In this document: positions 10,566 to 40,034 of the stretch, in pieces
Layout of the letters: the number at the start of each line of letters is the position of its first letter
Numbering within the stretch: position 1 is the first letter of the stretch
Virus record (IMG/VR): IMGVR_UViG_3300046710_000196
Coordinates: 1 to 40,252 of that record
DNA length: 40,252 nt
Direction: 5' to 3' (one strand)
Source of the DNA: a virus
Notes under the pieces: model-generated
What the model saw: only the letters and a program-made list of their open reading frames with translations
Told to the model about the DNA's origin: nothing
Databases searched by the model: none
Position numbers and translations under genes: made by a program

Positions 10566-12080
10566 TCAACCATCGGGGATCGGGTTATGGCAGATGATCT
10601 GGCCAAGGATCTGCGCGCCGTCGCGGTCGACGCTGATGCGGGCGACAAAACCATGCAGCAGCCGGCGGACGGTTTCGGGGTCCTGGCTGGCCAGATTCTG
10701 GCGCAGGTTGGCGGCCAGGATCTGGAGCTGGCCCAGGGTGAAATTGGCGGGCGGAGCGGCGCTCTGATCGGTAAGGCGGCTCTGTTCGGCAAGGGCCTCG
10801 GATTCGTCCAGCTCGAGCTGGTGAAGCTTTGCGGTGAGGGCCCGGCCGGGGCCGGCGTCGGCGATGGCGGCGGTGACATTCGAAATGCGCCGGCGGACGT
10901 TGGCCAGGCGCGGGCGGAGGGCGGCGATCTGCTGTTCGAGCTCGGCGGCCTGCCTGGCCTGGCCATGCAGGATGAGGGATTGGATTTCAGCCAGGCTTTC
11001 AGTTGTGATGGCCTCTGCAACGGTAGCGAGCACAGCGGTTTCCAGGGCAGCGCGGGGTATGGGCTTTAGGTCGCAGTCACGCCGGCGGACGGCAGCCGAG
11101 CAGGCATAGCGATCATAGGTGCGGCTGCTGCGTTGAGACGCTCCGGCGCCGAAGAGGGGTGATCCGCAGCGGGCGCAATAGGCCAGGCCGGAGAGGAGAT
11201 ATTTGCTGCCGTCGCGGCGGGGATGGCGGGGATTGCCGCGCCCATTATCCGGAGACAGGTTGCTGTGAGCGGAATGCTGCCGGACCAGGAGCTGGACAGA
11301 ATCCCAAGTGGCCTGGTCGATGATGGGGGCGCAGTAATCCGGGATGACCTGGTCGCCGAATTCGAGGATACCGATATAAATCCGGTTGGCGAAAAAGGTT
11401 GTATAGCTGTTGAGGCTGCCGTAGAGATGGGTGACCTGGTTGATCTCGGCCAGTGAGCGGCCGGCGGCGCGCAGTTCGAAGGCCTGGCGCACCAGCGGAA
11501 TCGTATCCGGATCCGGGACCCAGCGGTGAGCGATGTGGGGCTGGCCATCCCGGCGCCCGGGCAGCTCGACCGGCTGGCGGACGAAACCGCGCGGCGGCGT
11601 CCCGGGCATGGCGCCGTAGGTCAGCACCAGGTGGGCCAGGCCGCGCTTGACGTCCCGGGAAAGGTCACTTAAAAATCTTTCGTTCATCCAGTCGATGGCG
11701 GCCTCGAAGAAGCGACCCTCGGGACCGTCGGGAATATTATCGTTGATGGATAAAACCTTATATCCTCGCCGGCGCAGATCGGCGCGGTAGAACGCGGCGT
11801 CATTCATGTCACGTGAGAAGCGGGACATCTTCCAAATGACCACGCCCTCCTCCGTGCAGCCACCTCGCCGGAAATAATCCATCATGGAAAGGAACCCTTC
11901 CCGGCCCACCACGCTGGAACCCGGGCGAGCCTCATCCTTGAACCAGTGGGTGATGGCAAAGCCGTTCTGAACAGACCAGGCGCGCAGGGCGGCCTCTTGT
12001 TGGGCGGTGGAGAGGTCCTGGGCATCGCCGCCGCTGTCACGCAGGTAGGCGGCGAGGGTATGAATGGGAGAATCGGTCAT
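10566..12080 (-). CDS. Large serine recombinase (integrase)
   Basis: 504 aa. It has an N-terminal resolvase-type domain (AAYLRDSGG.., SRFSRD) and a recombinase domain. It also has a Cys ribbon (CARCGSPLFG...YACS) and a C-terminal coiled coil. Confidence 0.85.
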   Translation of the reverse strand: MTDSPIHTLAAYLRDSGGDAQDLSTAQQEAALRAWSVQNGFAITHWFKDEARPGSSVVGREGFLSMMDYFRRGGCTEEGVVIWKMSRFSRDMNDAAFYRADLRRRGYKVLSINDNIPDGPEGRFFEAAIDWMNERFLSDLSRDVKRGLAHLVLTYGAMPGTPPRGFVRQPVELPGRRDGQPHIAHRWVPDPDTIPLVRQAFELRAAGRSLAEINQVTHLYGSLNSYTTFFANRIYIGILEFGDQVIPDYCAPIIDQATWDSVQLLVRQHSAHSNLSPDNGRGNPRHPRRDGSKYLLSGLAYCARCGSPLFGAGASQRSSRTYDRYACSAAVRRRDCDLKPIPRAALETAVLATVAEAITTESLAEIQSLILHGQARQAAELEQQIAALRPRLANVRRRISNVTAAIADAGPGRALTAKLHQLELDESEALAEQSRLTDQSAAPPANFTLGQLQILAANLRQNLASQDPETVRRLLHGFVARISVDRDGAQILGQIICHNPIPDG

Positions 12081-14985: not shown

Positions 14986-15161
14986 TCCTGGCCATCCTCA
15001 TCTTAATTGGCATATTGTACCTGACGGTAGCGGTGTTCACCTGGTCGCTTTGCCGGGCGGCAGCCGACGCCGACCAACTCATAGAAGAAATGTGGTTGAT
15101 TGAGCGGGCGGGTCAGACCGTTTCCGTAGAAACGGTAGAAAAGCCCGGCGGTGAGCAATGA
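14982..15161 (+). CDS. Small membrane protein (59 aa)
   Basis: Translated by hand: MILAILILIGILYLTVAVFTWSLC... It has an ATGA overlap with the upstream gene. It is below the ORF-track size cutoff. Confidence 0.5.
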   Translation: MILAILILIGILYLTVAVFTWSLCRAAADADQLIEEMWLIERAGQTVSVETVEKPGGEQ

Positions 15162-15324
15162 GCGCTCCCTTAAACGGGGCAACCGTCCTGGGTAAGAGGA
15201 CGGCTGCCGATAGGACGGGGAAAGGTTTGAACTCTCTCTCCCTTTTGAACTCAGTTCGAGTTCTGACACACCCTCACGAAGCAGCCTCATTATATCAGAA
15301 TAATGGGACCGATTCAAGAGGTTG

Positions 15325-15397
15325 TGCCCCCGGTCAGGGTCGAACTGGCATAGGACATTTCGTGAGGATGTCGCACTTTCCATTGTGCTACGGGGGC
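15325..15397 (-). tRNA. tRNA-Val(CAC)-like gene, 73 nt, no encoded CCA
   Basis: I folded the minus strand by hand. The acceptor stem is 7 bp (GCCCCCG/CGGGGGC). U8 and A14 are present. The D stem is GCAC/GUGC with a GG-containing loop. The anticodon loop is CU-CAC-GA, the variable loop is 5 nt, and the T loop is UUCGACC with G53-C61. The discriminator is A73. There are two C/A mismatches, at 31-39 and 50-64. Confidence 0.65.
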
Positions 15398-15405
15398 ACG
15401 CCCTT

Positions 15406-15434
15406 ATTCTATAGGCGATCCCCCGGGAATACAA
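15406..15434 (-). promoter_or_regulatory. Possible promoter for the tRNA-like gene
   Basis: The minus strand reads TTGTAT (15434-29), a 17-nt spacer, then TAGAAT (15411-06), ending ~8 nt before the tRNA 5' end. Confidence 0.35.
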
Positions 15435-15453
15435 GCAACCGAAAGGCGAGGGA

Positions 15454-15609
15454 ATGATGGGTATTTTGCGCTGGCTGATGATCGCCTTGCTGGAGCTGGC
15501 CCTGCCCAGCCGGAAGTGGATCCCGGTGGTGATGGATGGCGAGGTTCGGGTGCGGATCACGCCGGCCGGCCGGGAAGCGCTGGAAGAAGCTCGGCAGGCT
15601 GAACGATGA
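15454..15609 (+). CDS. Small hypothetical protein (51 aa)
   Basis: Translated by hand: MMGILRWLMIALLELALPSRKWIPVVMDGEVRVRITPAGREALEEARQAER. An RBS-like aaaggcgaggga lies upstream. It has an ATGA overlap with the next ORF. Confidence 0.45.
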   Translation: MMGILRWLMIALLELALPSRKWIPVVMDGEVRVRITPAGREALEEARQAER

Positions 15610-15842
15610 AATGGACCACCCATTTTGAAATGGTCCCTATCCCGGTTCCGCCGGAGGCCCGTTTCAGACTCCTGGATGCCCAGCGCATGCTGGCGGAGAT
15701 GATGCGGGTAGAGGCGATCCGGCTCGGCTGGCTGCCGCCGGACCCGGTCCCGGCGGCGCCGGTAACGGCGGTGATAGTCGAACCGGAAGAAACAGAGGCC
15801 GAACTTTTGGCCATGGCAACCATGGCGACCATCGAAGTATAA
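15606..15842 (+). CDS. Hypothetical protein (78 aa)
   Basis: ORF in the plus-strand operon, translationally coupled to the upstream ORF. Confidence 0.5.
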   Translation: MKWTTHFEMVPIPVPPEARFRLLDAQRMLAEMMRVEAIRLGWLPPDPVPAAPVTAVIVEPEETEAELLAMATMATIEV

Positions 15843-15858
15843 GTTGGCGGAGGGAAAC

Positions 15859-15942
15859 ATGTTTTTATCTATCATCTTTGGATTGATCCTTGTCATCCCG
15901 GCCCTCTATTCGACGGGGCGGGACATTCAGAACGATCGCTGA
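15859..15942 (+). CDS. Possible 27-aa membrane peptide
   Basis: The peptide is MFLSIIFGLILVIPALYSTGRDIQNDR, with RBS ggaggga upstream. Very short, so weakly supported. Confidence 0.3.
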   Translation: MFLSIIFGLILVIPALYSTGRDIQNDR

Positions 15943-15947
15943 TCCCG

Positions 15948-17021
15948 ATGGATTTGCCTGAAACAATAGACTTGTCGGAGCCGATGGAACTGGCTACGGT
16001 CGACCGTCCGGAAGGACCGGTTGAAGATTGGGCGCAGGCCTTCGAAGCCTGGCTGGGCGGGATGGCCGTGAATACACAGACGGCCTATAAAGCGGCCTGG
16101 CGGGCGCTGCTGGCCCAATGCCGCCTGAAGCCATGGCAGATCGGGCGGGGCGACGTGGCCCGCTGGGTGGAGTCTTTGCGCCAGAAAGGCCTGGCGGAGA
16201 AAACGATCAACATGCGGGTGGCCGGGATCTCTTCTTTCTTCCGGTATGCCGGAAACGATTTTACTGTTACTCGCAATGGGCGAGAGGAGCCGCTGTTCGC
16301 GGGCCTCAACCCGGCCGGGGCGCGGACGCTGCGGAATAAAGCCGCAGCTTACAAGCGCAGCGGCTTCCTCTCGCCCGAGGAGTCCAGGCTGCTGCTGACG
16401 GTGGTCTCCATGCGGACCGGGATCCAGGCCAAACGAGACTACGCCCTGTTCCTGACCTACCTGATGACGGGCCGACGCAACAGCGAGGTGCGGCAACTGA
16501 AATGGGGCGACCTGGAAACAGCAATGGATGGGAAGGCCTACTACACCTGGTCCGGGAAGGGCCAGACGGACGTGAAGCACGAGCTGCCGGCGCCCTGCCT
16601 GGAAGCGATCCGGGCCTGGCTGGTTGCGGACGGACGGCTGAGGTCGATCCAGCCTGGCGACACCATATTTACGGCCACAAACGACCATGCCAGCCGGCTG
16701 CCGGGCGGAAAAACATGGGCTCCCGGGGCGCCATTGAGCTCGAAGCAGGTGGGCAAGCTGCTCCGGTACTATGCAGCGCTGGGCGGGATCGAAGGCCACA
16801 TCCACGTGCACATGCTCCGCCACTCCGCCGCCATGCTGCGCAAAGCCGTCGGGGATGACGTTGAAGCGATCAGCTCGCAGCTGGTGCATTCGAGCCTGGC
16901 AGTGACGCAAATTTACCTCCATAGTCTGGAAGGCCGGGGCGATGAGAGCTGGGAAAAGGTGGCGGCCTTGCTGGGTGTGCCAATCAAGAATAACAAGATC
17001 CGGAAGAAATCCAAAGAATAG
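15948..17021 (+). CDS. Tyrosine recombinase (phage integrase / Xer-like family)
   Basis: It has an N-terminal SAM-like domain. Catalytic signatures are TGRRNSEV, HMLRHSAA and LVHSSLAVTQIYLH (R..HxxR..H..Y). Confidence 0.85.
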   Translation: MDLPETIDLSEPMELATVDRPEGPVEDWAQAFEAWLGGMAVNTQTAYKAAWRALLAQCRLKPWQIGRGDVARWVESLRQKGLAEKTINMRVAGISSFFRYAGNDFTVTRNGREEPLFAGLNPAGARTLRNKAAAYKRSGFLSPEESRLLLTVVSMRTGIQAKRDYALFLTYLMTGRRNSEVRQLKWGDLETAMDGKAYYTWSGKGQTDVKHELPAPCLEAIRAWLVADGRLRSIQPGDTIFTATNDHASRLPGGKTWAPGAPLSSKQVGKLLRYYAALGGIEGHIHVHMLRHSAAMLRKAVGDDVEAISSQLVHSSLAVTQIYLHSLEGRGDESWEKVAALLGVPIKNNKIRKKSKE

Positions 17022-18057: not shown

Positions 18058-18288
18058 ATGGAAGAGCAAGCGATTTATCAGGCGGGCGAATTCGATCTGG
18101 CGGATGTATTTGACCTGGTACAGGCCGCGGAGATCAACCTGGCGTTTGCCAAACGTCACCACGAGGGTCAGAAATATGGGATGGCCTATAAGGAGCTGTG
18201 CCAGGCGGCGGATTATCTGCGGGGTGGTTTGCAGGCGCTGGAGAAGCTCTTGATTCCACCCGAGGCCGGCTCGCCGGCGGAAAAATGA
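18058..18288 (+). CDS. Hypothetical protein (76 aa)
   Basis: RBS ggag lies upstream. The protein looks helical. Confidence 0.55.
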   Translation: MEEQAIYQAGEFDLADVFDLVQAAEINLAFAKRHHEGQKYGMAYKELCQAADYLRGGLQALEKLLIPPEAGSPAEK

Positions 18289-18294
18289 TTGCAT

Positions 18295-18930
18295 GGGGCG
18301 CTGGAATAGCAGCGGCTTCCGCATTCCTCCTGGCCGCATCGGATGTTCGAGGCATCTGAGCCCCGCTCACACCCGGCATTTTGCGAGGGTTGGCGTTTCA
18401 GAGAATGTCTAAGAACGCTGGTGAGGTCGCCCACTCGTTGAGGTCTGAGGCTGTGCGGATGTCAGGCGATTAGAAAAACAGGCCACTCGAACGCCGGACG
18501 GACAAGGCGTGACAGCTCGGAGAGACGGCAGCACTTTTACAACAGCATAATCTGGCGGCGGCGTGGACAGTGACACGCAGGATTTCGACCGGGAATACAG
18601 GGAGACCTGAGCCTCGGCGCAATAACGCAACCCAGGCGACGTGGCGATAGGTAGAGATGCCTATCCCGTAAAGAGTGGTTGCAATCCGGCATAAGCCTAC
18701 CCCGTTGTAACCGGAATATCGGATCTGGCGAAAAGCCAGAAAGCGAACCCGGAGATCCGACTCGGGGCCGCCAGTTTGCACCAGCCTATGCGCCGAACCG
18801 TGATCGTGTAATTAAGGACAACCTTTGTGCTGATCACCCAAAAGGTCTTACCCTCGGTGACCCACCCGGCAGACAATCGAAAAGAGTCTGACGGGGCGCT
18901 CGGGCTGGTTACTTCTCGAAAGAGCGTCGA
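18295..18930 (+). ncRNA. Candidate large structured non-coding RNA or leader (family unknown)
   Basis: This is the largest ORF-free interval in the genome; all six frames give only junk ORFs. Many local helices and one 8-bp long-range helix were found by hand, listed in the findings. Several contain G-T pairs that work only on the plus strand. Confidence 0.4.
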
Positions 18931-18940
18931 TGGAGGTTTT

Positions 18941-19159
18941 ATGCTGGTCCAGGTAGTGAATGATTTTTTGGCGGTAGAGCTGCCGGGCGACCGGAGGGTG
19001 GTCGATCTCCGGGCCTATCCGGTCCTGGTGGCCGGCCAAAAGATGGACGCCGCGGTTGAATTTTTCAGGACTGAATTGGGTTGGATTGTCGAAGACCTGC
19101 GGCGGATCGAGACCGAGACGCCGGGCGAAATGGTTGATCTGGAATGGTTTCAGAAGTAA
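18941..19159 (+). CDS. Hypothetical protein (72 aa)
   Basis: RBS ggagg lies 4 nt upstream of ATG 18941. I prefer this start over the ORF-track start 18827. Confidence 0.55.
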   Translation: MLVQVVNDFLAVELPGDRRVVDLRAYPVLVAGQKMDAAVEFFRTELGWIVEDLRRIETETPGEMVDLEWFQK

Positions 19160-19169
19160 GGAGAAAGAA

Positions 19170-20030
19170 ATGAAAATCAAATGCGAATACATCGTACCGA
19201 ACCCGCAGCAGCCGCGGGTGGATTTTAACCAGGAGGATCTGGAAACGCTGGCGCAATCTATCGAGGAAAACGGCTTGATCCAGCCGGTGGTGGTGGAACA
19301 GGCCGGAACGAAATTTATCCTGATCGACGGCGAGCGCAGATGGCGGGCGCACCTGCTGCTGGGACTGCCCGAGATCGAAGCCGTGATCCGGCCCAGCTCC
19401 AATGGATCGGGCAGTCGAGAGCGCTTGTTCCTGGCGCTGGCGGCCAACCTGCAGCGGACCGACCTGCGGCCCATCGAAGAAGCCGAGGCATATTCCACCC
19501 TGCGCAACCAGCTGGGAATGAGTATAACCGAGATCACCCAACGCGTCGGGCGGACCTCTACACACGTATACAGCCGGATCAAGCTGTTGGATTTCCCGGC
19601 TGAGGTCCAGTCATACTTCAACAGCGGGCGCCTGCCGCTGGACGAACGGGTGTTCAACTCCCTGCGGAAATTGGAGCTCGAGGACCAGGTCCGGATCGCC
19701 CGGGCGGCGGTCTTACGCCAGCTGACGGTGCATGGGATCTGTTCTATTTGCACGCGCATTCTCAACGGGTACGCCTACGACACCACGAAGAAAACCCCGG
19801 CCATGGAAGGCGGGCGGGCGCATACCTACAAGACGCATACGCCAACAGACGTCAAGGATGCGATGCTGGTGGTCGAGCAGCACGCCGGCGTGGTTGCCTG
19901 GGAGCGGATTGCAGCGGCAGCTCGGGAAACGTGCCGGGAGGACTGCGTTCTATTCGAAGATGCCTCGCCGAAAATGTGTGCGAACTGCCCGGCGAAGGAT
20001 TTGATCAGAAGGATCGAAAAACAGGAGTAA
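19170..20030 (+). CDS. ParB-family protein with a C-terminal Cys cluster
   Basis: RBS aaggag precedes ATG 19170. ParB N-terminal motifs are IVPNPQQPRVDF and LIDGERRWRA (arginine patch). The HTH is MSITEITQRVGRTSTHVYSRIKLL. The C-terminus carries CSIC, CREDC and CANC. Confidence 0.8.
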   Translation: MKIKCEYIVPNPQQPRVDFNQEDLETLAQSIEENGLIQPVVVEQAGTKFILIDGERRWRAHLLLGLPEIEAVIRPSSNGSGSRERLFLALAANLQRTDLRPIEEAEAYSTLRNQLGMSITEITQRVGRTSTHVYSRIKLLDFPAEVQSYFNSGRLPLDERVFNSLRKLELEDQVRIARAAVLRQLTVHGICSICTRILNGYAYDTTKKTPAMEGGRAHTYKTHTPTDVKDAMLVVEQHAGVVAWERIAAAARETCREDCVLFEDASPKMCANCPAKDLIRRIEKQE

Positions 20031-20034
20031 CACT

Positions 20035-21249
20035 ATGAATATTTTGTACGTTCCCCTCGATAAAATTGTAGCCAACCCTTTCCAGGTCCGCCATGAAGAT
20101 CCGCAGCATGTCAAGAACCTGGCGATCTCGATTGCAGCCAATGGTCTGCTCCAAATCCCAACCGCCAGGGCTGAACTGGCCGGGAAGCATTGCTACCAAC
20201 TGGCCTTTGGCCATTCCCGGCTGGCAGCCTTCAAATGGATTCGGGATGCCAAGCCTCTTAGCATTTCCGCATTAAGAGCTTCTACGGATGGCTCATGCGA
20301 TTGGACCACCATGCCGCTTAACATCGTAGAGCTTACCGACCAGCAGATGTTCGAGGCAGTCGTGGCTGAAAACATGGCCCGCAAGGACCTGGACCCCATC
20401 GAGCAGGCTATGGCCATGGTGGTTTACCGGGATAAATTCGGTAAAACGTCCGTGGAAATCGGGACGCTCTTCGGTCTGAGCGATTCGGCGGTGCGCAATA
20501 AGATGCGGCTGCTCAAGCTGCCCGAAAACCTGCAGGTCCTGTTATCGCACGGCGAGCTCCCCGAAGGAGCCGGCCGGGCCCTGGTAAACCTCTTCGAACT
20601 GAGCGAGGCACAGCGCACGGCAGCGGAGGAGCAGGAGGATCTGTGCCCGTCTGTGATCATCGAGGCGGCGCTGTCGGGAGCGCAGCCGGAGGCGATCACG
20701 GGCATGATCAACAAGCTGCTCGTGCGATTGATCCAGAAACCAGATAGCACGGTATGGAGCGACACAGAAGCCGGCGCTTATATCGGCTCCGCGACACGGA
20801 CCGCAGTTCTGGCTCCCGAGCCGGCGCTTATATCGGCTCCGGCGCCGATGCCTGCCGAACAAGAAATGGAAACGACGCCGGCTCCCATCCCCATCCCACC
20901 GCCGGCCAGTTGGGGGCCGATGGTGGAAACTGCGGTCCAGGCCCCCAGGCCGGCTCCGGCGGCGATCCCTGCGCCACCCGCGCCCGCCACCCCACCCGCG
21001 CCGACCTATTTCAGCACGGAAATTGCTCCGGCTCCAATGCTGGATTGGGCCCATTCCACGATCACGCTGACCCTGACCTACTGGCCGGAGGACGGAAACC
21101 CCAACGGGCGGACGGTTATGATCGGCGGCCGGCTGAATCAGTTAGTCCCGGTCATGCGCATGAGCCGCGAAAAGATGCTGCAGCTCCCGATTCAGCTCAG
21201 CTCATTAATAGACGAGCTGCAGCTCTGGACCAAAGAAGGTGAGAAATGA
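20035..21249 (+). CDS. Second ParB-like protein with a Pro/Ala-rich linker
   Basis: Motifs are IVANPFQVRHEDP, FGHSRLAAF (a variant arginine patch) and the HTH KTSVEIGTLFGLSDSAVRNKMRLLKL. A long P/A-rich segment and a C-terminal domain follow. Confidence 0.7.
   Translation: MNILYVPLDKIVANPFQVRHEDPQHVKNLAISIAANGLLQIPTARAELAGKHCYQLAFGHSRLAAFKWIRDAKPLSISALRASTDGSCDWTTMPLNIVELTDQQMFEAVVAENMARKDLDPIEQAMAMVVYRDKFGKTSVEIGTLFGLSDSAVRNKMRLLKLPENLQVLLSHGELPEGAGRALVNLFELSEAQRTAAEEQEDLCPSVIIEAALSGAQPEAITGMINKLLVRLIQKPDSTVWSDTEAGAYIGSATRTAVLAPEPALISAPAPMPAEQEMETTPAPIPIPPPASWGPMVETAVQAPRPAPAAIPAPPAPATPPAPTYFSTEIAPAPMLDWAHSTITLTLTYWPEDGNPNGRTVMIGGRLNQLVPVMRMSREKMLQLPIQLSSLIDELQLWTKEGEK
20769..20841 (+). repeat. 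Two exact 23-bp direct repeats, 50 bp apart, inside the ParB-like gene
   Basis: agccggcgcttatatcggctccg occurs at 20769-20791 and 20819-20841. Each has AGCCG/CGGCT arms around an AT core. The two copies are read in different reading frames. Confidence 0.9.
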
Positions 21250-21674
21250 ACTATATCGTCTCGATCGAAGGCCAAAGCATCCCGCTGCCCGAAGAGATCG
21301 GGTCCAGCGATGACGCTGTCAAACGTGCCCTGGCGCCTTACTATCCCGAGGCCGCCAATGCCATGCTTACCCGGGTAACCCAGGGCGACACCACCACCAT
21401 CACGGTGATCAAAAAAGCCGGCACAAAAGGCCGTGGACTTGCAGCCCTAATCGCCTGCCCGGGCGGGAAGAACCCGGCCATGACGCTGTACGAGGAGATC
21501 AATGCCCTGGATGAACTCGCCCGGATGGACCCCCTGACCCTGCTGGAGATGGATGCCCGCATCGAAGAGGCTATCACAGCGGGAGGGCAACAGGCCGAAG
21601 CGGTGGCTTTTGCGGCGAAACGCCTGATCCGGTCGGCGGCCCAACCTGCGCCGGTCATCATTTTGGGGTTCTAA
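21246..21674 (+). CDS. Ubiquitin-like (prokaryotic Ub / PRTRC protein C-like) domain fused to an 80-aa C-terminal extension
   Basis: The N-terminal 62 aa, MNYIVSIEGQSIPLPEEIGSSDDAVKRALAPYYPEAANAMLTRVTQGDTTTITVIKKAGTKG, fit my recollection of the PRTRC-C pattern (..YYPE..A......GTKG). I could not verify this against a profile. It has an ATGA overlap with the upstream gene. Confidence 0.55.
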   Translation: MNYIVSIEGQSIPLPEEIGSSDDAVKRALAPYYPEAANAMLTRVTQGDTTTITVIKKAGTKGRGLAALIACPGGKNPAMTLYEEINALDELARMDPLTLLEMDARIEEAITAGGQQAEAVAFAAKRLIRSAAQPAPVIILGF

Positions 21675-22645
21675 TGCTCGACTGCCTGCCAGCGCTGGCT
21701 GCCGGTCCGACATTCAAGGAGGTCACACTCTTCTTGACCGCGCGCCGGCAGCCGAAGCTGGAGGATATGGTCGAGAGCCTGGATCTGCTGCGCAAACGCA
21801 CCCGCTTTGCGGTGATCCTCCAGGCGCTCAACCCGGAAAAATTCAGAGAGGTATGCGCCGGCCGATATGAGCTGGTGGTCGGAGATGTCAGCGAAGATCC
21901 GCTGATCGAGGCGGCGGTGGGGGAGATCAGTGATATTGCGCCCCTTGACCTGGAAGAAACCTTCATGTGCCTCGAAGACGGGTATGAGTACATTGATTAC
22001 CTCTACCCGGAGCACCTGGGCTACCCCATAGGCTGGGATGAATGGGAAGAACTGCACGATAACCCGAATGATTGGACTGAAACCATGGCGCTGTATGTGT
22101 TCGTCACCGCTCTGCGCCTGGGTGAAACGGAAGTTCTCGGCTCCTCCTCCGAACATTATGGCTGGGATCTGGAGGTCGAAGATTTGGAAGCGGGGATCCC
22201 AGAAGCCAATTGGGACCGTTTGTTTATCCTGCTGGACCAGCGCCAGATGAGCTGTTTCAAGAACGCCCTCGACGTGTGCATATATGATACCGGGAATCCG
22301 TATTTCGACTACAACCCTTATGATGAAGAGAGATGCCCCGACCTGCCGGGCATTACAGTGGAAGGGGTCCGCGCGCTGGAGAAAGCCTGGCAGGAAGCCC
22401 AACCCATCCGGCTCGATCACGAAACGGCTGCCGAGCAGTTTGCCCACGATCCTACGCTGGCGAAGGTGCTTTTGATGCTCTGGGCGGAGAGCGCAGACAA
22501 GCCTGAGCCGCGGCGGCCTCAAACCCTGGCCGAGATATGGGCGGATGAGCAGCCGGAACGGATCATCGATCCGTTTTACGGTCCGCTGGATGGGTGCGAA
22601 CAGGAAGTTCGCGAGGATGAAGAAGAACCCCTGGAGGAAGCATGA
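21674..22645 (+). CDS. Acidic Trp-rich hypothetical protein (323 aa), cassette component of unknown function
   Basis: It is translationally coupled on both sides. No motif was recognised. Confidence 0.6.
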   Translation: MLDCLPALAAGPTFKEVTLFLTARRQPKLEDMVESLDLLRKRTRFAVILQALNPEKFREVCAGRYELVVGDVSEDPLIEAAVGEISDIAPLDLEETFMCLEDGYEYIDYLYPEHLGYPIGWDEWEELHDNPNDWTETMALYVFVTALRLGETEVLGSSSEHYGWDLEVEDLEAGIPEANWDRLFILLDQRQMSCFKNALDVCIYDTGNPYFDYNPYDEERCPDLPGITVEGVRALEKAWQEAQPIRLDHETAAEQFAHDPTLAKVLLMLWAESADKPEPRRPQTLAEIWADEQPERIIDPFYGPLDGCEQEVREDEEEPLEEA

Positions 22646-23337
22646 ACAACACTGTTGATCTGCAAACCCGATTCCTGGCCCTGGCGGCGCTGGAGGACCC
22701 GGCGATTGAAGCCCAGGGCGTGCTTTACTTTTTGGAAGGGCATTATCTGTTCCGCTATCGGGAGAATAAGACCGTCAAGACCAAGTTCGTCACGTCTGCA
22801 GACGTGGCGGCGGCTTTTACCCAGCAGGATCTGGATACCGGCTGGCAGCCGGCCGGTATTGTGCGCCAGGGTCAAAGAGCCAGGGGACAATTCTTCGTAT
22901 ACAGCGCCCCGGCTCAGAGGGTGGAGATCCGCCTGGCGCAGAATGAGGCGCCGGTCGTGGTCCCCATCCCGCGCACGGTCCTTTTGGGAATCGGAGGCGG
23001 CTATCGTCTATGGGCCCTGCGCAGCAAGTATTTTTCCCCCGATGAGCGCGCTTACCTGGCGCCCTTCCCCAATATCAACCCCGGCGGCTCTATCTGTTGG
23101 GGTCAGAACACGCCCCCGCCGGCGGCGGTGGAAAAAGCAAGGGAGGTCTGGGAACTGTTTTTCGAGACGCCCTTCAACCAGGATCTGTCGGCGGGGAAGT
23201 CGGTCGCCCATCCCGAGGATGTACGCCTGGCCTTGCGCGAGCTGGCCGAAAAGAAAGCCCGCTCCTTTCCTATCGCAGGCCTGGTTGGGGAGCGATTCGG
23301 AACAATCGGCCAGTTGATCGAGCAGGCTTTGAGCTAG
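22642..23337 (+). CDS. E2-like (UBC-fold) protein
   Basis: The motif PFPNINPGGSICWGQN resembles the UBC active-site motif HPN(I/V)..G.IC. The candidate catalytic Cys is codon 152 (nt 23095-23097). Confidence 0.65.
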   Translation: MNNTVDLQTRFLALAALEDPAIEAQGVLYFLEGHYLFRYRENKTVKTKFVTSADVAAAFTQQDLDTGWQPAGIVRQGQRARGQFFVYSAPAQRVEIRLAQNEAPVVVPIPRTVLLGIGGGYRLWALRSKYFSPDERAYLAPFPNINPGGSICWGQNTPPPAAVEKAREVWELFFETPFNQDLSAGKSVAHPEDVRLALRELAEKKARSFPIAGLVGERFGTIGQLIEQALS

Positions 23338-23339
23338 TT

Positions 23340-23951
23340 ATGTTTGTCAATCACATTGTTGCCAATAATCCTTATCTGCCCAGGATGGGCCCTTTCCTGT
23401 ATACATATATCCTGGCTGCTAATGGAATTTTCGTCAGGGCCCGGCGTCCGGAGTTAGCGGCCCTGATCTGGGTGGCCAGCGTCCGGGAGCCGGTGCGCGG
23501 CCTGTATGAAGTACATCCGTATGTCGGTATGGACTGCCGGGTTCCTGTGCTCCAGGTGGCACGGATGTTCGAGATGGCCTACCGGGCGGACGGGAAAGAG
23601 ATCCTATTTTACCTGTCTGCCAATCCCTGGCGGATCCAGGTCCCAGAACAGGTCCAGCGCGGCGCCTCGGTCCACCCGGTGGATCCATATGCCGGCGGGG
23701 CCAACACGATCATCGAGGTCCACAGCCACCATGGGATGAAAGCATTTTTCTCGGAGGAGGATGACCGTGAGGAGCAGACCGGCTTTCGGATCTATGCCGT
23801 GCTGGGGGATTTATACAACCGGCCGGCGATCCGAGTGCGGGTCGGGATCTACGGCCATTTCTGGGAGATCCCGGCCGACTGGGTTTTTGAACTGCCGCAA
23901 GGCGTTAAAGATGGGTTATATGAGGGTATCGAATATGAGCACACCCGTTGA
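23340..23951 (+). CDS. JAB/MPN (JAMM) metallopeptidase
   Basis: EVHSHHGMKAFFSEEDD matches HxHx7Sx2D exactly. I prefer start ATG 23340, 3 nt after the upstream stop, over the ORF-track start 23097. Confidence 0.75.
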   Translation: MFVNHIVANNPYLPRMGPFLYTYILAANGIFVRARRPELAALIWVASVREPVRGLYEVHPYVGMDCRVPVLQVARMFEMAYRADGKEILFYLSANPWRIQVPEQVQRGASVHPVDPYAGGANTIIEVHSHHGMKAFFSEEDDREEQTGFRIYAVLGDLYNRPAIRVRVGIYGHFWEIPADWVFELPQGVKDGLYEGIEYEHTR

Positions 23952-24774
23952 ATTAAACCTGGATTTTGTGAACGCAGCCCGGCTGCTATTGCCGGCATAC
24001 GATTCGGTCACCCTGGCCCTGGTGGGCTGCGGCGGGACCGGTTCCTGGCTGGCGCCCTCGCTAGCCCGGATTGCCCGCCTGCTGGCAGAAAAATTCCACA
24101 AGGAAGTTGCTTTATATTTCATCGATCCCGACCGGGTAGAGGCGAAAAACGTTTACCGCCAAAACTTCTGCGAGGCTGAGGTTGGACGTTTCAAGGCGGA
24201 CGCTTTAGCTTTTCGCTATGGCCTGGCCTGGGGGGTTGAAATATCGGCGCCTATCCAGCCGTTCGAGCGCACCATTTTTAATGGTTCGGTGAGGGATGAC
24301 GCTCTGAAGGTCGTGGTGGGCTGCGTGGATAATGCTGCGGCGCGCCGGAATATTGAAGCGGCTGTCACCGGCGCCGGCCAGAAACAGGCGCGCTACTGGT
24401 GGTTGGACTGCGGGAACCACCAATCCGCCGGGCAGATCGTCCTCGGATGCGGCGTCAAGAGACCCCAAAAACCGTTCGAGCTGGCCGGTTATTGCTCCTG
24501 GCTGCCCCTCCCGACCATCCATCACCCCGAGCTCCTGCGGGTGGACCAGGGCGAGAAGTCTATCGATCAGGAGCTTTCTTGCGCCGACCTGGCCTTGCAG
24601 GACAGCCAGGGCCTGGCGATCAACCAGCGCATTGCCGCTGAGGCATCCGACTACCTGGTGCGCCTGCTTATCACAAAGGACCTACAGAAATATGCCACCT
24701 ACATCGACCTGGCGTCCGGATCGGCGAGATCCAAATACATCACGCCTGCCATAATGGAGAATCGAAATGAGTGA
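23935..24774 (+). CDS. E1-like / ThiF-family adenylyltransferase
   Basis: The Rossmann motif is LVGCGGTGSW. ThiF-type motifs are IDPDRVEAKNVYRQNF and VVGCVDNAAARRNI. I chose start 23935 (RBS gaggg); the alternatives are 23911 and 23920. Confidence 0.75.
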   Translation: MSTPVELNLDFVNAARLLLPAYDSVTLALVGCGGTGSWLAPSLARIARLLAEKFHKEVALYFIDPDRVEAKNVYRQNFCEAEVGRFKADALAFRYGLAWGVEISAPIQPFERTIFNGSVRDDALKVVVGCVDNAAARRNIEAAVTGAGQKQARYWWLDCGNHQSAGQIVLGCGVKRPQKPFELAGYCSWLPLPTIHHPELLRVDQGEKSIDQELSCADLALQDSQGLAINQRIAAEASDYLVRLLITKDLQKYATYIDLASGSARSKYITPAIMENRNE

Positions 24775-25066: not shown

Positions 25067-26068
25067 ATGGCTAATCCGATCCTGACAGCAACGCTACTGC
25101 GGACACTCAAGGGCTCGCCGCTGAGCGTATTGATGGCGCTGGCGCTGGTGCGGCAGCCGGTGGAGGCGCAGTGGCTGGAGCGCACGACAGGATACTCTGA
25201 CAAGAGCGTATCAAATGCGCTGCTGTTCCTGGAGGAGAACGGCTGGGCGATCCGAAACGGGCGGTATGGCTGGATTATGGCAGGGGAGTCGGTGCAGCTG
25301 CCGTTGATGGTTCCCGAGATAGAGAGCCAGTCTGCGGCGGATGAAGCGGAAGAGCCGGCGGAAATCGGAGAAGAATTGTCCGAGAAACGTTTCCACGGAA
25401 ACGAACAAACGTTCTATACTGGAGAGGAAACAGGAGAAAGCATATCCGATAAGGGGGACTCGGAGAAATTCCGACTCGGAAATTCTCCGAGTCCCGACTC
25501 TAGTAGTAGTAGTAGATCTATTCTTCTAGATTCTAGTAAGGATCTACTACTAGCTAGAAAGGGGGAGTCGGAGAAATTCCGGGTCGATGTTCTGGAAGAG
25601 CTGGATAGATGGGGTATTCGTGAGCCGGTTCGAAGCCGGATAGCCAAAAAGCCAGATATAGCCGTTGAAAGTATTCGATACCATTGTTCAACGAGCGAAA
25701 CCTCTGGTCAAGCGATCTATCGTATTGAGCATGATTGGAAAATTAAGGCGGCTCCGCCTGGTTTGAGATTGCCAGAGACCGTTTCCGTGGAAACGGTCGA
25801 GGAGGAACCGGGCGACGAGATTGCGGAGGGATGGTGGCAGTCCGTGATGGCCGGTCTGCGGGAAATGATGCCGCGGGCGCAGTTCGAAACCTGGGTCCAG
25901 CCGGCCGGGCGGGCCTGGCAAGAGGGTGAGGCGCTGGTGATATTGGCGGTCAACGATGGATTGAAGCGTTGTATCGAGAAATTTACCGATCCCGAGGCGC
26001 TGAATCTGCTGGTCGAGCAGGTCAGCGGTGGAGTGGTCAGACGATTGGATATAGTTATTCCAGAATGA
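25067..26068 (+). CDS. Replication initiator-like protein (N-terminal winged-helix, C-terminal DnaA-N-like domain)
   Basis: The N-terminus LRTLKGSPLSVLMALALVRQPVEAQWLERTTGYSDKSVSNALLFLEENGW looks wHTH-like. The C-terminus WWQSVMAGLREMMPRAQFETWVQPAG...ALVILAVNDGLKRCIEKF resembles DnaA domain I. The gene contains the iteron/AT-rich block. Confidence 0.6.
   Translation: MANPILTATLLRTLKGSPLSVLMALALVRQPVEAQWLERTTGYSDKSVSNALLFLEENGWAIRNGRYGWIMAGESVQLPLMVPEIESQSAADEAEEPAEIGEELSEKRFHGNEQTFYTGEETGESISDKGDSEKFRLGNSPSPDSSSSSRSILLDSSKDLLLARKGESEKFRVDVLEELDRWGIREPVRSRIAKKPDIAVESIRYHCSTSETSGQAIYRIEHDWKIKAAPPGLRLPETVSVETVEEEPGDEIAEGWWQSVMAGLREMMPRAQFETWVQPAGRAWQEGEALVILAVNDGLKRCIEKFTDPEALNLLVEQVSGGVVRRLDIVIPE
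25453..25586. repeat. Candidate origin of replication: iterons flanking an AT-rich palindrome
   Basis: Direct 26-mers GGGGGACTCGGAGAAATTCCGACTCG (25453-78) and GGGGGAGTCGGAGAAATTCCGGGTCG (25561-86) match at 23 of 26 positions. An inverted copy lies at 25478-95. The central ~60 bp are AT-rich, with the inverted repeat TAGTAGTAGATC/GATCTACTACTA. Confidence 0.5.
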
Positions 26069-28186: not shown

Positions 28187-28864
28187 ATGCCAGCCAGAAA
28201 ACCAGCCGGACTGATCACCAGGGCCGAAACCAAGGCCAAAAAGGCAGCCAGAGTCGGGGGCGAAGCCGCTCTGAAGCCGCGCCGGTCGCTGCCGCTCAGT
28301 CCACCGGCGAGGCTGAAGGGGCACGAGGTGGCGGAGACCACCTGGCGGCGGATGATGCGCATGTACCGCGGTCTCGAAGCCGAGGTGGTGACCGGGATGG
28401 ACCTGGATCTCCTGGTGGACTACTGCATCCTGACCGAGCAGGTTGTGGAGATGGATCACCTGCGGAAGCGAGCAGCCGATGTTTATGCTGAGCTGGACCG
28501 CAAGCTGGGTGAGATCGGCGCCAGGCGGGCTGAGCTGCGCAAAGAGTTGACAATGCTGAAAGCGGAAACGGAGCAGGAGGTGCAGATCGAAGCACTGCAT
28601 GCCAGGATCGATAAACTAGATGATCAGTACCTGGATGTGATGCTCAAGATGGCGAGCGCCTTCGAAGGCATTGTGAAGTTGGATGGCCGCGTCGATCGCA
28701 AGCGGGACCTGGTATTCAAGTTCCGCCAGTCGCTGTACCTGACGCCCAGGGCCAGGGCGGGTGCGGCGCCGGCTCAGAAAGAAGAGCTGCCGCCTCCGGA
28801 CGATATGGAGCAGCTGCTGGACGATATCAACAATACTCTGAATGGTAAACAGGATGGCCAATGA
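28187..28864 (+). CDS. terS: Terminase small subunit (P27-like)
   Basis: It has a basic N-terminus (MPARKPAGLITRAETKAKKAARVGGE) and a coiled-coil middle. It lies directly upstream of terL with an ATGA overlap. Confidence 0.7.
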   Translation: MPARKPAGLITRAETKAKKAARVGGEAALKPRRSLPLSPPARLKGHEVAETTWRRMMRMYRGLEAEVVTGMDLDLLVDYCILTEQVVEMDHLRKRAADVYAELDRKLGEIGARRAELRKELTMLKAETEQEVQIEALHARIDKLDDQYLDVMLKMASAFEGIVKLDGRVDRKRDLVFKFRQSLYLTPRARAGAAPAQKEELPPPDDMEQLLDDINNTLNGKQDGQ

Positions 28865-37097: not shown

Positions 37098-37900
37098 GCG
37101 ATCCAATTCGGGCAGGACTGGCGCATCTGACGGCCTTCGTGATGGTGGCCAGCAACGGAACCGTGGTCACCGGACTCGGGACCGCTATAGTCGTATCCGT
37201 TTCCAAAAACGGCGCGGCCTTTGTGGCCGGAGCTGGAACAAAAACTGAGATCGGCAGCGGTTGGTATACCTATGAGCTGACCGCTGCCGAGACCGACACG
37301 GTTGGACCGCTGGCCGTAAAGGTCACCGGAGCCGGCGCGGTCCAGCAAAACCTGCTGTTCCAGGTCGACTGGGCGGCTTATGCTGCCCCGGCCGGCACGT
37401 ATATCTTGACGGCCACAGAAGCCTCAGACGTGCTGCGCTGCGCCATCGATGACCCGAATATGCTGATGCTCCTGCCGCAGGTGGATGCCTATATTCTCAA
37501 CGCCACCGGGCGGGATTGGGCGGCTGATACGACTATCAACCCGGTGGCCAAGGGCGCGGCCCGGATGCTGCTGGTGAAATGGCATGAGGATCCGGGGATG
37601 AACGCCACCCAGGCAGCCTCGCTGGCTTTCGGCCTGACAGCCTGCCTGGTCCAGCTCGAAGCGCTGGCGCTGCGCTACAAGCAGTTCCAGGGCCGGGATG
37701 GGGCCGGATCCTGCTGCCTGATGGGGGCCCATTTTGGCGATACGGTTTCGACCCTGGTGGGCCTGGTCGGTGAGACCGGAGACCAATCGGCCGATTTTGA
37801 GGAGGTGATCACGATCAATAACACTATCCAACAAACATCGACCGATGACCTATCGGAGAACTGGTACCGGGCCTACCTGTTACCGGTGAGCAGCCTATGA
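37094..37900 (+). CDS. Head-tail connector (gp6-like C-terminal domain) with an extra N-terminal domain
   Basis: The C-terminal part is ILTATEASDVLRCAIDDPNMLMLLPQVDAYILNATGRDW...ARMLLVKWHEDPG. It sits at the start of the connector gene set. Confidence 0.55.
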   Translation: MSDPIRAGLAHLTAFVMVASNGTVVTGLGTAIVVSVSKNGAAFVAGAGTKTEIGSGWYTYELTAAETDTVGPLAVKVTGAGAVQQNLLFQVDWAAYAAPAGTYILTATEASDVLRCAIDDPNMLMLLPQVDAYILNATGRDWAADTTINPVAKGAARMLLVKWHEDPGMNATQAASLAFGLTACLVQLEALALRYKQFQGRDGAGSCCLMGAHFGDTVSTLVGLVGETGDQSADFEEVITINNTIQQTSTDDLSENWYRAYLLPVSSL

Positions 37901-38999: not shown

Positions 39000-39932
39000 A
39001 TGAGTCCATTAAGTATCAATGCAGGCGAGTACAAATCCACAATTGGGTTGGATAACCTCTATATCGCCGAAGTAACTTCCGATGACGCGAGCGCCTATGT
39101 AGCCGGCACGCCGGAACGCCTGGCGCCGGCTGCCAATGCGGTCCACGAGCCATCGGTCACCAACCAGATCCAATGGGCGGACGACCAGCCTTATGACGTT
39201 CTGTCGGCGCAGGGAGAGACCAAGATCACCCTGACGATCACCGGCCTGCCGGCTGAAATGCTGGCCTGGATCACCGGCGCGACGTTCGACGATACGACCG
39301 GGCGAGTGTTCGACAATGCCAACCCGGCCCTGGCGCCGTACTTTGCGCTGATGTTCCGCAGCCAGAAGTCGAACGGGTCCTACCGCTACTACTGCTACCT
39401 GAAAGGGAAATTCAGCCCGCCCAAAGAGGAATCGGCGACCAAGACCGACAAACCCGATCCAAAATCGACCCAGGTGGAATTTGTGGCGATCAAGACTGTC
39501 TACGAGTTCAGCCTGGGCGGCGGCTTGACCGACTCCGTCAAGCGGGTATGGGGCGATGAGGATACCGATGCCTTTGTAGCGACCGGCTGGTTCGTCCAGG
39601 TCCAGACGCCGGAAACGACCTCGGTTTCAGCTCTGGCGCTCTCATCGAGCGTCCCGACCGATCCGGGCACGAACATCGTGGTGAGCGCCGATCTGAGCCT
39701 GACCTTCAACAACGCTCTGGTGAGCGCCGCCGTGCATGGGGTTGCGCTCTACCTTGTTTCAGATGGGTCGCTGGTTGCAGGAACGATCGTCCTGGATACT
39801 GCCAAAAAGGTGATCACGATCAATCCGACCGCAAGCCTCACCGCGGGGGTTGCCTACCTGTTGACCTATGCGGTCACGGACATCTACGGCCAGACCCTGC
39901 GCGGCGCGGTCAACCTGGCTACGGCAGCCTAA
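39000..39932 (+). CDS. Major tail protein with a C-terminal Ig-like domain
   Basis: RBS aaaaggag precedes ATG 39000. The C-terminal ~90 aa (SALALSSSVPTDPGTNIVVSADLSLTFNNAL...VITINPTASLTAGVAYLLTYAVTDIYGQTL) look like a bacterial Ig-like domain. Confidence 0.7.
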   Translation: MSPLSINAGEYKSTIGLDNLYIAEVTSDDASAYVAGTPERLAPAANAVHEPSVTNQIQWADDQPYDVLSAQGETKITLTITGLPAEMLAWITGATFDDTTGRVFDNANPALAPYFALMFRSQKSNGSYRYYCYLKGKFSPPKEESATKTDKPDPKSTQVEFVAIKTVYEFSLGGGLTDSVKRVWGDEDTDAFVATGWFVQVQTPETTSVSALALSSSVPTDPGTNIVVSADLSLTFNNALVSAAVHGVALYLVSDGSLVAGTIVLDTAKKVITINPTASLTAGVAYLLTYAVTDIYGQTLRGAVNLATAA

Positions 39933-39977
39933 GTAAGCTAGGCAGGTTAGCCGAAGTCATTTTCAGCTATACAAAAT

Positions 39978-40020
39978 CTCCCCGGCCAGCCCTCTTAAAT
40001 GCGAGGGTCAGGCCGGGGAG
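39978..40020 (+). other. Long bipartite hairpin between the major tail and chaperone genes
   Basis: The outer 10 bp pair ctccccggcc (39978-87) with ggccggggag (40011-20). The inner 5 bp pair ccctc with gaggg. No U tract follows; the next RBS follows directly. Confidence 0.7.
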
Positions 40021-40034
40021 AGAAAGGATTGAGT

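Follow-up and report, generated by a model that had tools for sequence, protein, structure and literature searches.

A probable plus-strand RNA locus with tRNA-like modules in the longest gene-free stretch of a temperate phage genome

To our knowledge, mimicry of tRNA by bacteriophages is known only from scattered cases, namely extra tRNAs, full transfer-messenger RNAs (tmRNAs) and the single RNA of mycobacteriophage DS6A that consists of a tRNA-like domain (TLD) only. The tRNA region of phage T4 also contains two stable RNAs of unknown function, and YrlA, a bacterial Y-RNA-like tRNA mimic with a T-arm and D-arm elbow that is bound by Rsr/Ro60, is sometimes found in phages. The TMERs of murine gammaherpesvirus 68 and the engineered "tRNA scaffolds" join a tRNA-like element to a cargo, the element recruiting tRNA-processing enzymes and stabilizing the cargo. 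The RNA of DS6A is the one phage TLD-only RNA of this general kind on record, and a similar TLD molecule strongly inhibits tmRNA whether chargeable or not, perhaps by titrating SmpB (PMC4131195); mini-tmRNAs without a coding sequence have also been reported (PMC11915505). Here we describe a gene-free stretch at 18289-18940 of the IMG/VR virus record IMGVR_UViG_3300046710_000196, whose whole length of 40,252 nt is called the window below. The stretch, called the gap, holds three modules, TLD-A, D2 and D3, and we read it as a functional plus-strand RNA locus with tRNA-like modules, giving this reading a probability of roughly 0.7.

The gap (about 650 nt; 652 nt when folded as a whole) is bordered upstream by the stop codon (18286-18288) of a 76-amino-acid open reading frame (ORF) and downstream by the ATG at 18941 of a 72-amino-acid ORF, whose ribosome-binding site (RBS) GGAGG lies at 18933-37. 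It has no credible ORF, and its GC content of 0.57 is genome-like. A preliminary description of this DNA had called it by far the longest non-coding gap of the genome, in agreement with the ORF lists, where ORFs are otherwise scarce only over about 290 nt around a tRNA-Val. Its plus-strand ORFs are several of 30-39 amino acids and one of 70, and the minus strand holds an Arg/Ser/Pro-rich shadow ORF of 103 amino acids. We also considered a missed protein, that is, a small ORF or a frameshifted or recoded gene. Plus-strand ORFs of 30-70 amino acids do exist, but they are short and Arg/Pro/Ser-rich, as had been noted before, and none of the gap ORFs is shared with the homologous region of another phage contig (L095), which differs by indels whose lengths are not divisible by three; the other genes of the window have long ORFs in the standard code. 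A protein here is thus scarcely credible.

The preliminary description had left open whether the gap belongs to a known class of RNA. It matches none: the Rfam 15 covariance models, run over the whole window at the gathering score, found nothing in the gap, a scan of 18100-19100 at E <= 10 returned a single chance-level match to a long non-coding RNA (E 3.5), and ARAGORN called no tRNA or tmRNA in the gap. Searches with blastn of the gap, and of one element of the family to which D2 belongs (type B, below), gave no match among 50,697 cultured phage genomes. Like the ROOL and GOLLD RNAs, the locus is a long many-helix non-coding stretch in a phage. It differs from them in having no Rfam 15 match (window at the gathering score, region at E <= 10) and in its independent modules, two of which are tRNA-like. 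The earlier view of a non-coding, structured RNA has held, whereas that of one large ornate RNA of the ROOL/GOLLD kind has given way to three modules in a row, each of about 70-220 nt and folding on its own, and two of them tRNA-shaped.

Relatives were sought through the neighboring genes and through the gap itself. The first ParB protein downstream (ParB1) has no close relative, the best being 45% identical, and the relatives found with it were chromosomal ParBs or phages with another gene order and without a comparable gap. The genes ParB2, p142, p323, E2 and ThiF downstream of the gap are syntenic in IMG/VR contigs, and a search with an aligned set of the ThiF-like protein brought up 70 loci from viruses and 80 from metagenomes, each taken with 10 kb on either side; ThiF used as a single-protein pattern retrieved nothing. 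The metagenome loci were mostly short contigs, of which L208 alone was useful (L-numbers are labels of the phage contigs or loci compared with the window). With nhmmer, the gap found one locus, L095 582-852 (plus strand, E 4.5e-5), covering only 18294-18543 of the window, and a profile of the window and L095 also reached L097 and, weakly, L099. The homologue in L095 lies in 730 nt without ORFs that precede the SSB and integrase genes, and that in L097 upstream of an integrase gene, so a non-coding element is conserved while the neighboring genes differ. A 670-nt gap in L092 proved to be a gene on the minus strand, and of 35 matches to the 5' pattern GGGCGNTGGAANANCARCGG in IMG/VR those in two known contigs were real and the others were chance occurrences inside genes. 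Covariance models were searched against pattern-selected loci (1.7 Mb), and their E-values are rough. A home-made scanner for a T-arm plus acceptor strand gave about 7 false matches per 1.3 Mb of control strand and is not evidence on its own.

The conserved 5' part of the gap begins with TLD-A, whose parts are as follows.

18294-18366, plus strand: TLD-A, a 73-nt tRNA-like domain, from the comparison of homologues and the minimum free energy (MFE) fold
18295-99/18360-64, plus strand: acceptor stem, the sixth position being G:A
between acceptor and P2, plus strand: unpaired D-region CUGGAAUAGCA, containing GG and without a D-stem
18312-16/18333-37, plus strand: stem P2, GCGGC/GCCGC, closing the 16-nt CU-rich loop UUCCGCAUUCCUCCUG
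18340-45/18353-58, plus strand: stem of the canonical T-arm GUUCGAGGC

The core of the module reads GGGGCG / C-UGGAAUAGCA / GCGGC-UUCCGCAUUCCUCCUG-GCCGC / AU / CGGAUG-UUCGAGG-CAUCUG / A-GCCCC. The T-loop UUCGAGG fits the pattern G53 U54 U55 C56 R57 A58 .. C61, and the T-arm sits directly on the acceptor, giving a 6+6 = 12-bp stack; the discriminator in the window is G, and CCA is not encoded. A covariance model trained on the window, L095 and L097 (R1) and one trained on all seven copies (R2) score the module in the window, which belongs to both training sets, at 78.8 and 78.4 bits, respectively. Among the homologues, R1 gave 31-104 bits in L095, L097, L099 (two copies) and L107 (two copies), making 7 copies in five contigs, every one on the gene strand. 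Of the pair cells in the seven copies, 98.2% are standard, and 7 of the 16 pairs have changed on both sides. The covariation score of 0.417 compares with 0.145 in shuffles, none of 500 shuffles reaching it, and sliding the pairing partners lowers the pairing to about 50%. When the 73 nt are folded in isolation, the MFE structure contains all three comparative helices.

All the helices listed in the preliminary description exist where it had placed them, although the first of them does not belong to the conserved fold: its GGAAT/ATTCC helix enclosing GCGG/CCGC competes with P2, the pairing kept in 7/7 homologues, which shows A-U to G-C covariation among them and is present in the MFE structure of the isolated module. 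Its hairpin CGGATG-TTCGAGG-CATCTG is there as described and had been overlooked as a canonical T-arm. Across the copies, the inner helix closes a loop of 12-44 nt, which contains CUCC or CCCC in 7/7; five of the seven loops have an 8-mer with at least 7 pyrimidines (UUCCUCCU, UCCCCCUC, UUUUCCCC, CCCCCCUG and UCGCUCCU). In the related TLDs of L102, L208 and L295, the sequence CCCCCCU is displayed in a hairpin whose stem covaries (CCUG/CAGG vs. CAUG/CAUG).

The closest described counterpart of TLD-A is the TLD of DS6A, which we located at 28478-28556 of JN698994 (L279). Both are phage-encoded RNAs of about 70-90 nt in an intergenic gap on the gene strand, and both run from the acceptor through a D-loop with GG and no D-stem, P2 with a short loop, a short linker and the T-arm to the 3' acceptor strand; in DS6A, as in TLD-A, P2 and its loop occupy the place of the mRNA-like domain. 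The mini-tmRNAs of jakobid mitochondria and Mallomonadaceae plastids are relatives of this TLD-only form. We also observed a second natural example of the DS6A type in L309, at 5205-5296 on the minus strand: this 92-nt TLD-only tmRNA scores 53.1 bits with RF00023 (gathering score 47), carries G3:U70 and ends in CCAC without a full CCA. TLD-A, on the other hand, has G3-C70 where the mini-tmRNAs of DS6A and L309 have G3:U70, its stack is 6+6 bp instead of the 7+5 of a TLD-only tmRNA, its apical loop is CU-rich, more modules come after it, and the Rfam tmRNA and ARAGORN models reject it.

These comparisons bear on a narrower version of our reading, in which TLD-A is a degenerate TLD-only tmRNA that titrates the trans-translation system of the host by binding SmpB and perhaps also EF-Tu or the A site of the ribosome. 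The shared architecture speaks for it, and so do the inhibition by TLD molecules irrespective of charging, the fact that, in the whole 60.6 kb of DS6A, it is the TLD that the TLD-A model matches best (18.4 bits, E 0.028), the resemblance of the 5' sequence GGGGCGaUGGAAuAuCAaCGG of TLD-A to the Rfam tmRNA consensus GGGGguGAucuGGaUUCGACggg, and the occurrence of a true TLD-only tmRNA beside a type-B element in L309. However, the position of the alanine identity pair G3:U70 is G-C in 7/7 copies (pair 6/127), and the Rfam tmRNA model that finds the L309 TLD at 53.1 bits finds nothing in 18100-19100 even at E <= 10. ARAGORN calls no tmRNA, the discriminator is G without an encoded CCA, and with the TLD-A model ordinary tRNAs score no lower than tmRNA TLDs, which leaves a specific relationship to tmRNA unsupported. 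TLD-A is thus built like a TLD, yet with G3-C70, no Rfam tmRNA match and tRNAs scoring equally well we do not class it as a tmRNA, and we consider the decoy version unlikely.

The second module of the plus-strand RNA locus, D2, is larger and has the following parts.

18552-18774, plus strand: D2, a 223-nt tRNA-shaped RNA, from the type-B family model
18552-58/18768-74, plus strand: acceptor stem, with an eighth pair 18559-18767
18561-65/18574-78, plus strand: D-arm, GCGTG/CACGC
18700-04/18763-67, plus strand: stem at the T position, CCCCG/CGGGG, enclosing a 58-nt arm
18725-39, plus strand: boxB-like hairpin CUGGC-GAAAA-GCCAG inside the 58-nt arm

Where a tRNA has its anticodon arm, D2 has a branched insert of about 120 nt. 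The first 27 nt (18552-78, CUGGCGGCGGCGUGGACAGUGACACGC) align to elements in L103, L104 and L107 and conform to their 5' motif nnGGCGGCGGyGUGG-loop-CACGC, which comprises the 5' acceptor strand and the D-arm; those elements end in yCAGG-UUCRAAU-CCUGr-CCGCCa, a T-arm followed by the acceptor strand, and their MFE folds are cloverleaf-like. A model built from L103, L104 and L107 only, with the window left out (R3), aligns from end to end with plus-strand positions 18548-18778 of the window (27.2 bits, E 3.5e-4 for the 1.7 Mb searched), and D2 is its fourth-best match, directly behind the three training sequences. As the canonical T-arm is replaced by the CCCCG/CGGGG stem with its 58-nt arm, D2 is a divergent member of the family; an alternative T-arm, CCCGG-AGAUCCGAC-UCGGG, would have a 9-nt loop. 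The tRNA-like skeleton lies within 1.9 kcal/mol of the MFE. The 8-bp long-range pair 18552-59/18767-74 of the preliminary description is present and part of the MFE structure, although it had gone unrecognized as the acceptor stem of a tRNA-like RNA, and the GCGTG/CACGC helix, likewise present, is the D-arm of this second such RNA.

Type B is an RNA family supported by covariation and without an Rfam 15 match, carried by about 25-30 contigs of uncultured phages in IMG/VR. A scan of IMG/VR with the 3' motif found 33 contigs, against an estimated 0.5 or so by chance, and about 25 of these score 30-62 bits with R3. Hardly any variation is seen in the 5' acceptor strand, the D-arm and the T-arm, and the insert at the position of the anticodon arm is free to vary, its length being 10-250 nt; the whole element ranges from 67 nt in L281, which has no anticodon arm at all, to 311 nt. 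Over 36 distinct sequences, 97.1% of the cells are paired and 13 of 17 pairs have changed on both sides, far above shuffled and slid controls; the T-arm pairs are partly fixed by the search pattern, those of the acceptor and D-stem are not, and the alignment contains a few intron-like true tRNAs. Covariation among homologues, which the preliminary description had named as a check on the structure, is thus seen both in TLD-A (7/16 pairs) and in the family of D2 (13/17).

Both ARAGORN and Rfam miss the type-B elements. In L104 and L107, Rfam gave nothing relevant at the gathering score or at E <= 10, and ARAGORN, run on the window and 52 loci, called no tRNA or tmRNA at the elements with one exception: on a short (86-nt) type-B element in L287 (96-174) and L313 (3849-3927) it calls a 79-nt "tRNA-Asp(atc)". 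Type-B RNAs can accordingly be mis-annotated as odd tRNAs. The elements occur in tandem with or beside true tRNAs (L296, L297 and L308) and inside tRNA arrays (L289, L306 and L310), and this adjacency supports co-processing with tRNAs; the flanking proteins, among them RecA, a methylase and a sigma factor, share no theme. As a separate observation, in L297 a DUF3800-VIII RNA (4303-4368, minus strand; RF03075, 44.7 bits) abuts the type-B element at 4172-4305, with a tRNA about 650 nt away. The two kinds of module recur side by side. L295 repeats the order of the window, with a TLD whose loop is C-rich standing ahead of a type-B element and a terminator-like hairpin between the two; in L107 there are two copies of TLD-A and a single type-B element, and in L309 the TLD-only tmRNA has a type-B element on its own strand, about 800 nt upstream.

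With true tRNAs the modules share the 12-bp acceptor/T stack, the T-loop GUUCRANNC, the GG of the D-loop, the D-arm (type B) and the linkage to true tRNAs. Unlike tRNAs, they have no anticodon arm with a 7-nt loop, carry inserts of 10-250 nt, mostly do not encode CCA and are not recognized by tRNA models. A canonical tRNA was therefore rejected as an identity, as there is no RF00005 or ARAGORN match in the gap and the anticodon arm is a 16-nt loop in TLD-A and a branched insert in D2. Also rejected were a permuted two-piece tmRNA, for which the strand order is wrong; a tag-peptide ORF in D2 or L107, none being plausible; and a group I intron in a tRNA, the element being too short and without an Rfam match. 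YrlA-type Y RNA has the wrong topology: YrlA is permuted, its 5' and 3' ends forming the Ro-binding stem and its acceptor-like stem being closed by a loop, whereas the ends of the window modules form the acceptor stem. No gene for Rsr was found; the TROVE/Rsr and RtcB families had no match in the 30 window ORFs scanned against Pfam, and there was no Rfam match.

The modules might instead be decayed pseudogenes of a phage tRNA cluster, without present function. They do resemble tRNAs yet lack an anticodon arm that could be used, they are rejected by ARAGORN and by the Rfam tRNA model, and phages of this kind carry tRNAs, as shown by the tRNA-Val of the window and by the tRNA arrays that contain type B. 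However, compensatory changes keep the helices in phages whose proteins are 35-65% identical, the D-arm and T-arm of type B stay nearly invariant over more than 25 contigs while the insert varies freely, and the 67-nt minimal form without an anticodon arm exists. All this indicates selection on the scaffold rather than decay, and makes the pseudogene explanation quite improbable.

Fold stability and strand were assessed with z-scores against dinucleotide shuffles, the whole gap being done with 20 and with 100 shuffles. On the plus strand, the whole gap gave -2.9 (20 shuffles) and -2.7 (100), and on the minus strand -0.03 and -0.35. The parts gave the following.

18294-18540: z +0.30 on the plus strand, +0.78 on the minus strand
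18552-18774 (D2): z -4.53 on the plus strand, -3.26 on the minus strand
18775-18912 (D3): z -4.71 on the plus strand, -3.02 on the minus strand

Extra stability is thus confined to 18552-18912 and is stronger on the plus strand. The comparison with shuffles that the preliminary description had proposed comes out in favor of a structured RNA for 18552-18912 and not for 18294-18540. Among 182 non-overlapping plus-strand 220-nt windows of the genome (mean z -0.77, standard deviation 1.45), 18552-18771 ranks fourth, so the gap is unusual but not unique. Two plus-strand windows in the late gene region, 39892-40111 and 37252-37471, also have strongly negative values (-5.8 and -4.5). The G-U pair of the T-stem is kept in 4/7 TLD-A copies, which favors a plus-strand RNA and backs the earlier argument from G-U pairs; together with the plus-biased stability, it bears out the claim that the structure belongs to this strand.

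The surroundings of the gap could also suit a DNA element, namely an origin of replication, an attP or a parS centromere on which the neighboring ParB proteins would act. The window is the genome of a temperate siphovirus-like phage, with tail genes, a serine recombinase, a helix-turn-helix repressor, terminase, portal, ClpP and capsid genes, a tyrosine integrase (15948-17021), two ParB-family genes (19170-21249), and Prok-E2_D, ThiF/E1-like and DnaA_N-like initiator genes. The gap adjoins the two ParB-family genes and lies 1.3 kb from the integrase, and D2 and D3 are fairly stable on the minus strand too (z about -3). However, it has no iterons, repeated or parS-like palindromes or AT-rich stretch, only short repeats of 2-3 copies and chance size; the conserved features, such as the T-loop and the kept G-U pairs, are asymmetric and strand-specific, and in relatives the modules adjoin SSB, integrase or tRNA arrays, not ParB. 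Better candidates for such sites lie elsewhere. Inside the DnaA_N-like gene (25067-26068), the segment 25283-25604 contains direct repeats and near-perfect palindromes (GGGACTCGGAGAAATTCCGA / TCGGAAATTCTCCGAGTCCC) and looks like a replication origin embedded in an initiator gene, analogous to lambda O/ori; 25372-25591 has by far the strongest fold z of the genome (-9.6, 220-nt windows). The sole tRNA called by ARAGORN in the window, tRNA-Val(cac) at 15324-15397 on the minus strand, sits in an ORF-poor stretch of about 290 nt (15161-15454) just upstream of the tyrosine integrase, which makes this stretch a possible attP region and a better candidate than the gap. The partition or replication site that the preliminary description had kept as an alternative is therefore very improbable.

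Some further observations concern the same genome. The 297-amino-acid minus-strand ORF 15003-15896 that covers the tRNA-Val looks spurious. Both recombinase types occur in this one phage, a large serine recombinase at 10566-12080 on the minus strand and the tyrosine integrase at 15948-17021 on the plus strand. The cassette of ParB, ParB-like, p142, p323, Prok-E2_D and ThiF/E1-like genes (19170-24774) is syntenic in about 70 IMG/VR and 80 metagenome contigs and appears to resemble the "PRTRC" (ParB-related, ThiF-related) cassette of integrative elements.

Between and behind the two tRNA-shaped modules of the RNA locus lie a linker and spacer (18367-18551), the third module and the end of the gap.

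18367-18391, plus strand: linker after TLD-A, with U-rich CAUUUUG and conserved GAGGG
18392-18419, plus strand: hairpin GGCGUU/AACGCU with one G-U pair, from sequence and MFE fold, not conserved in L095
18491-18510, plus strand: hairpin ACGCC-loop-GGCGU, its arms identical in L095
18511-18530, plus strand: "GACAGC" hairpin GACA-GC(U)CG-GAGAGA-CGGC-A, with pairs 18515-29, 18516-28, 18518-27 and 18519-26
18780-18909, plus strand: D3, a four-way junction of 130 nt, from MFE fold, z-score and repeat scan
18910-18940, plus strand: GAAA-loop hairpin CUC-GAAA-GAG and RBS GGAGG, read from the sequence

The linker motifs are conserved in the alignment of the window with L095 and in L097. The GAGGG is complementary to the CU-rich loop of TLD-A and may pair with it; this pairing shows no covariation. 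In the ACGCC/GGCGU hairpin, the loop differs between the window and L095 in length (10 vs. 21 nt) and sequence. In its general form, GACA-GCNNG-GAGAGA-CNNGC-A, the GACAGC hairpin was found in the plus strand of only L095, L099, L102 and L103 among 163 loci and once in the window, and its fourth stem pair is CG, AU, GU or UA over 7 copies; MAFFT lost the register of these hairpins, and the pairs were counted by hand. The hairpin stands upstream of a TLD in L099 and L208 and inside the type-B element in L107, and this varying position indicates that the modules have been shuffled between phages. A further conserved non-coding module, CCCUGACGGCU..GUUGAGACCACGUCAGACA..GAGACCCGUCAG, is absent from the window and was seen at L104 3540-3620, L208 3955-4030 and L102 540-700; it has repeated GAGACC motifs and a plus-strand fold z of about -3.

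D3 is closed by an interrupted 13-bp helix, ACCAGCC..GCGCC / GGCGC..GGGCUGGU, that encloses three hairpins, and its last hairpin (18885-18906) is weakly terminator-like in a terminator scan. At the borders of the L103 RNA locus, AT-rich direct repeats (GTGAAAAACGAAAA twice and AAGCACACAA twice) lie at 500-640, just upstream, and the end (1290-1330) is marked by a clear terminator-like hairpin (GGGAGGGAC..GTCCCTCCC) with a U-rich tail behind it; together they suggest an independent transcription unit of about 690 nt in L103.

The placement of the modules would also fit cis-acting, tRNA-like "punctuation" or stable 5' and 3' ends of an early polycistronic mRNA that would uncouple and stabilize what is encoded downstream, here the ParB operon and in relatives SSB or integrase; once excised, the pieces would do nothing by themselves. 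Locus and flanking genes always share a strand, and the locus stands directly upstream of SSB (L095, L102 and L208), of an integrase (L097) or, in the window, of the 72-amino-acid ORF and ParB; D3 stops 30 nt before the RBS, and a separate promoter was not found in the gap. On the other hand, the downstream gene varies between phages and the modules are the conserved part, type B is also found in tRNA arrays and far from any particular class of gene, and the hypervariable inserts, like the conserved C-rich loops, suggest that the RNA as such has a role. Punctuation is a real if unlikely alternative, and one compatible with a role in trans.

Several findings weigh against a functional plus-strand RNA locus with tRNA-like modules. 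The 5' 250 nt (18294-18540) are indistinguishable from shuffles, and conservation among relatives falls in precisely this part, which has no extra stability; no excess stability was seen in the non-coding regions of L095, L099 and L103 either. TLD-A is rare, with 7 copies in five contigs among about 170 related loci, R2 having found no further copies in 1.7 Mb, and its seven-copy alignment was fitted to the model. Specificity is limited too, since with the TLD-A model ordinary tRNAs reach 17-24 bits and the TLDs of DS6A and L309 reach 18.4 and 17.7 bits, respectively. The score of D2 is modest (27 bits, with rough E-values), it lacks the family's canonical T-arm yCAGG-UUCRAAU-CCUGr before the 3' acceptor strand, and its interior is without comparative support, as is D3, for which no homologues were found. 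A scan of the gap found no sigma-70-like promoter and only one weak terminator-like site. Lastly, the functional steps below, that is, processing and targets, are purely inferred and far less certain than the reading of the locus.

Judged from sequence, the locus would be transcribed in the same direction as, and together with, the flanking early genes (integrase ... ParB). Host RNase P might act at the 5' side of the tRNA-shaped modules and RNase Z or exonucleases at the 3' side, possibly along with the CCA-adding enzyme, as the 12-bp acceptor/T stack that processing enzymes measure is kept (6+6 in TLD-A and 7+5 in type B). Such cuts would free the modules from the long transcript as stable, tRNA-shaped small RNAs. 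The conserved scaffold would then serve processing and stability, and the phage-specific work would fall to the variable parts, in TLD-A the CU-rich "anti-Shine-Dalgarno-like" loop and in D2 the branched insert; these parts may pair with G-rich sequences, or act as decoys for proteins that bind the elbow or acceptor of tRNA and tmRNA, such as SmpB, for which the TLD-only tmRNA of DS6A is a precedent.

More tentatively still, and with considerable doubt, one may see here a natural "tRNA scaffold", in which the conserved acceptor/D/T elbow would be a universal carrier to express, excise and stabilize diverse cargo RNAs. The window would then hold an array of carriers, possibly one with an anti-Shine-Dalgarno-like CU-rich loop as translational regulator or decoy and the other with a branched cargo of 190 nt. 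The analogy with TMERs and tRNA scaffolds would lie in a conserved tRNA-like element joined to variable cargo; those systems are eukaryotic (Pol III) or artificial, and TMER cargo lies 3' of the tRNA-like element, whereas here it is at the position of the anticodon arm. If true, the scaffold would be a new class of small RNAs of bacterial viruses and a prokaryotic counterpart of the tRNA-linked RNAs of herpesviruses.

Phage mimics of tRNA and tmRNA are already a known kind of RNA. New here are a tRNA-shaped family with hypervariable inserts, a rarer module with a C-rich loop and their recurrent side-by-side placement. For annotation, this means that the standard tRNA, tmRNA and Rfam tools miss these elements. 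If they are processed like tRNAs, they would give phages a route to stable small RNAs without dedicated promoters or terminators, and they would be candidate regulators or decoys aimed at translation, ribosome rescue and tRNA-targeting defenses, as well as templates for RNA-scaffold engineering.

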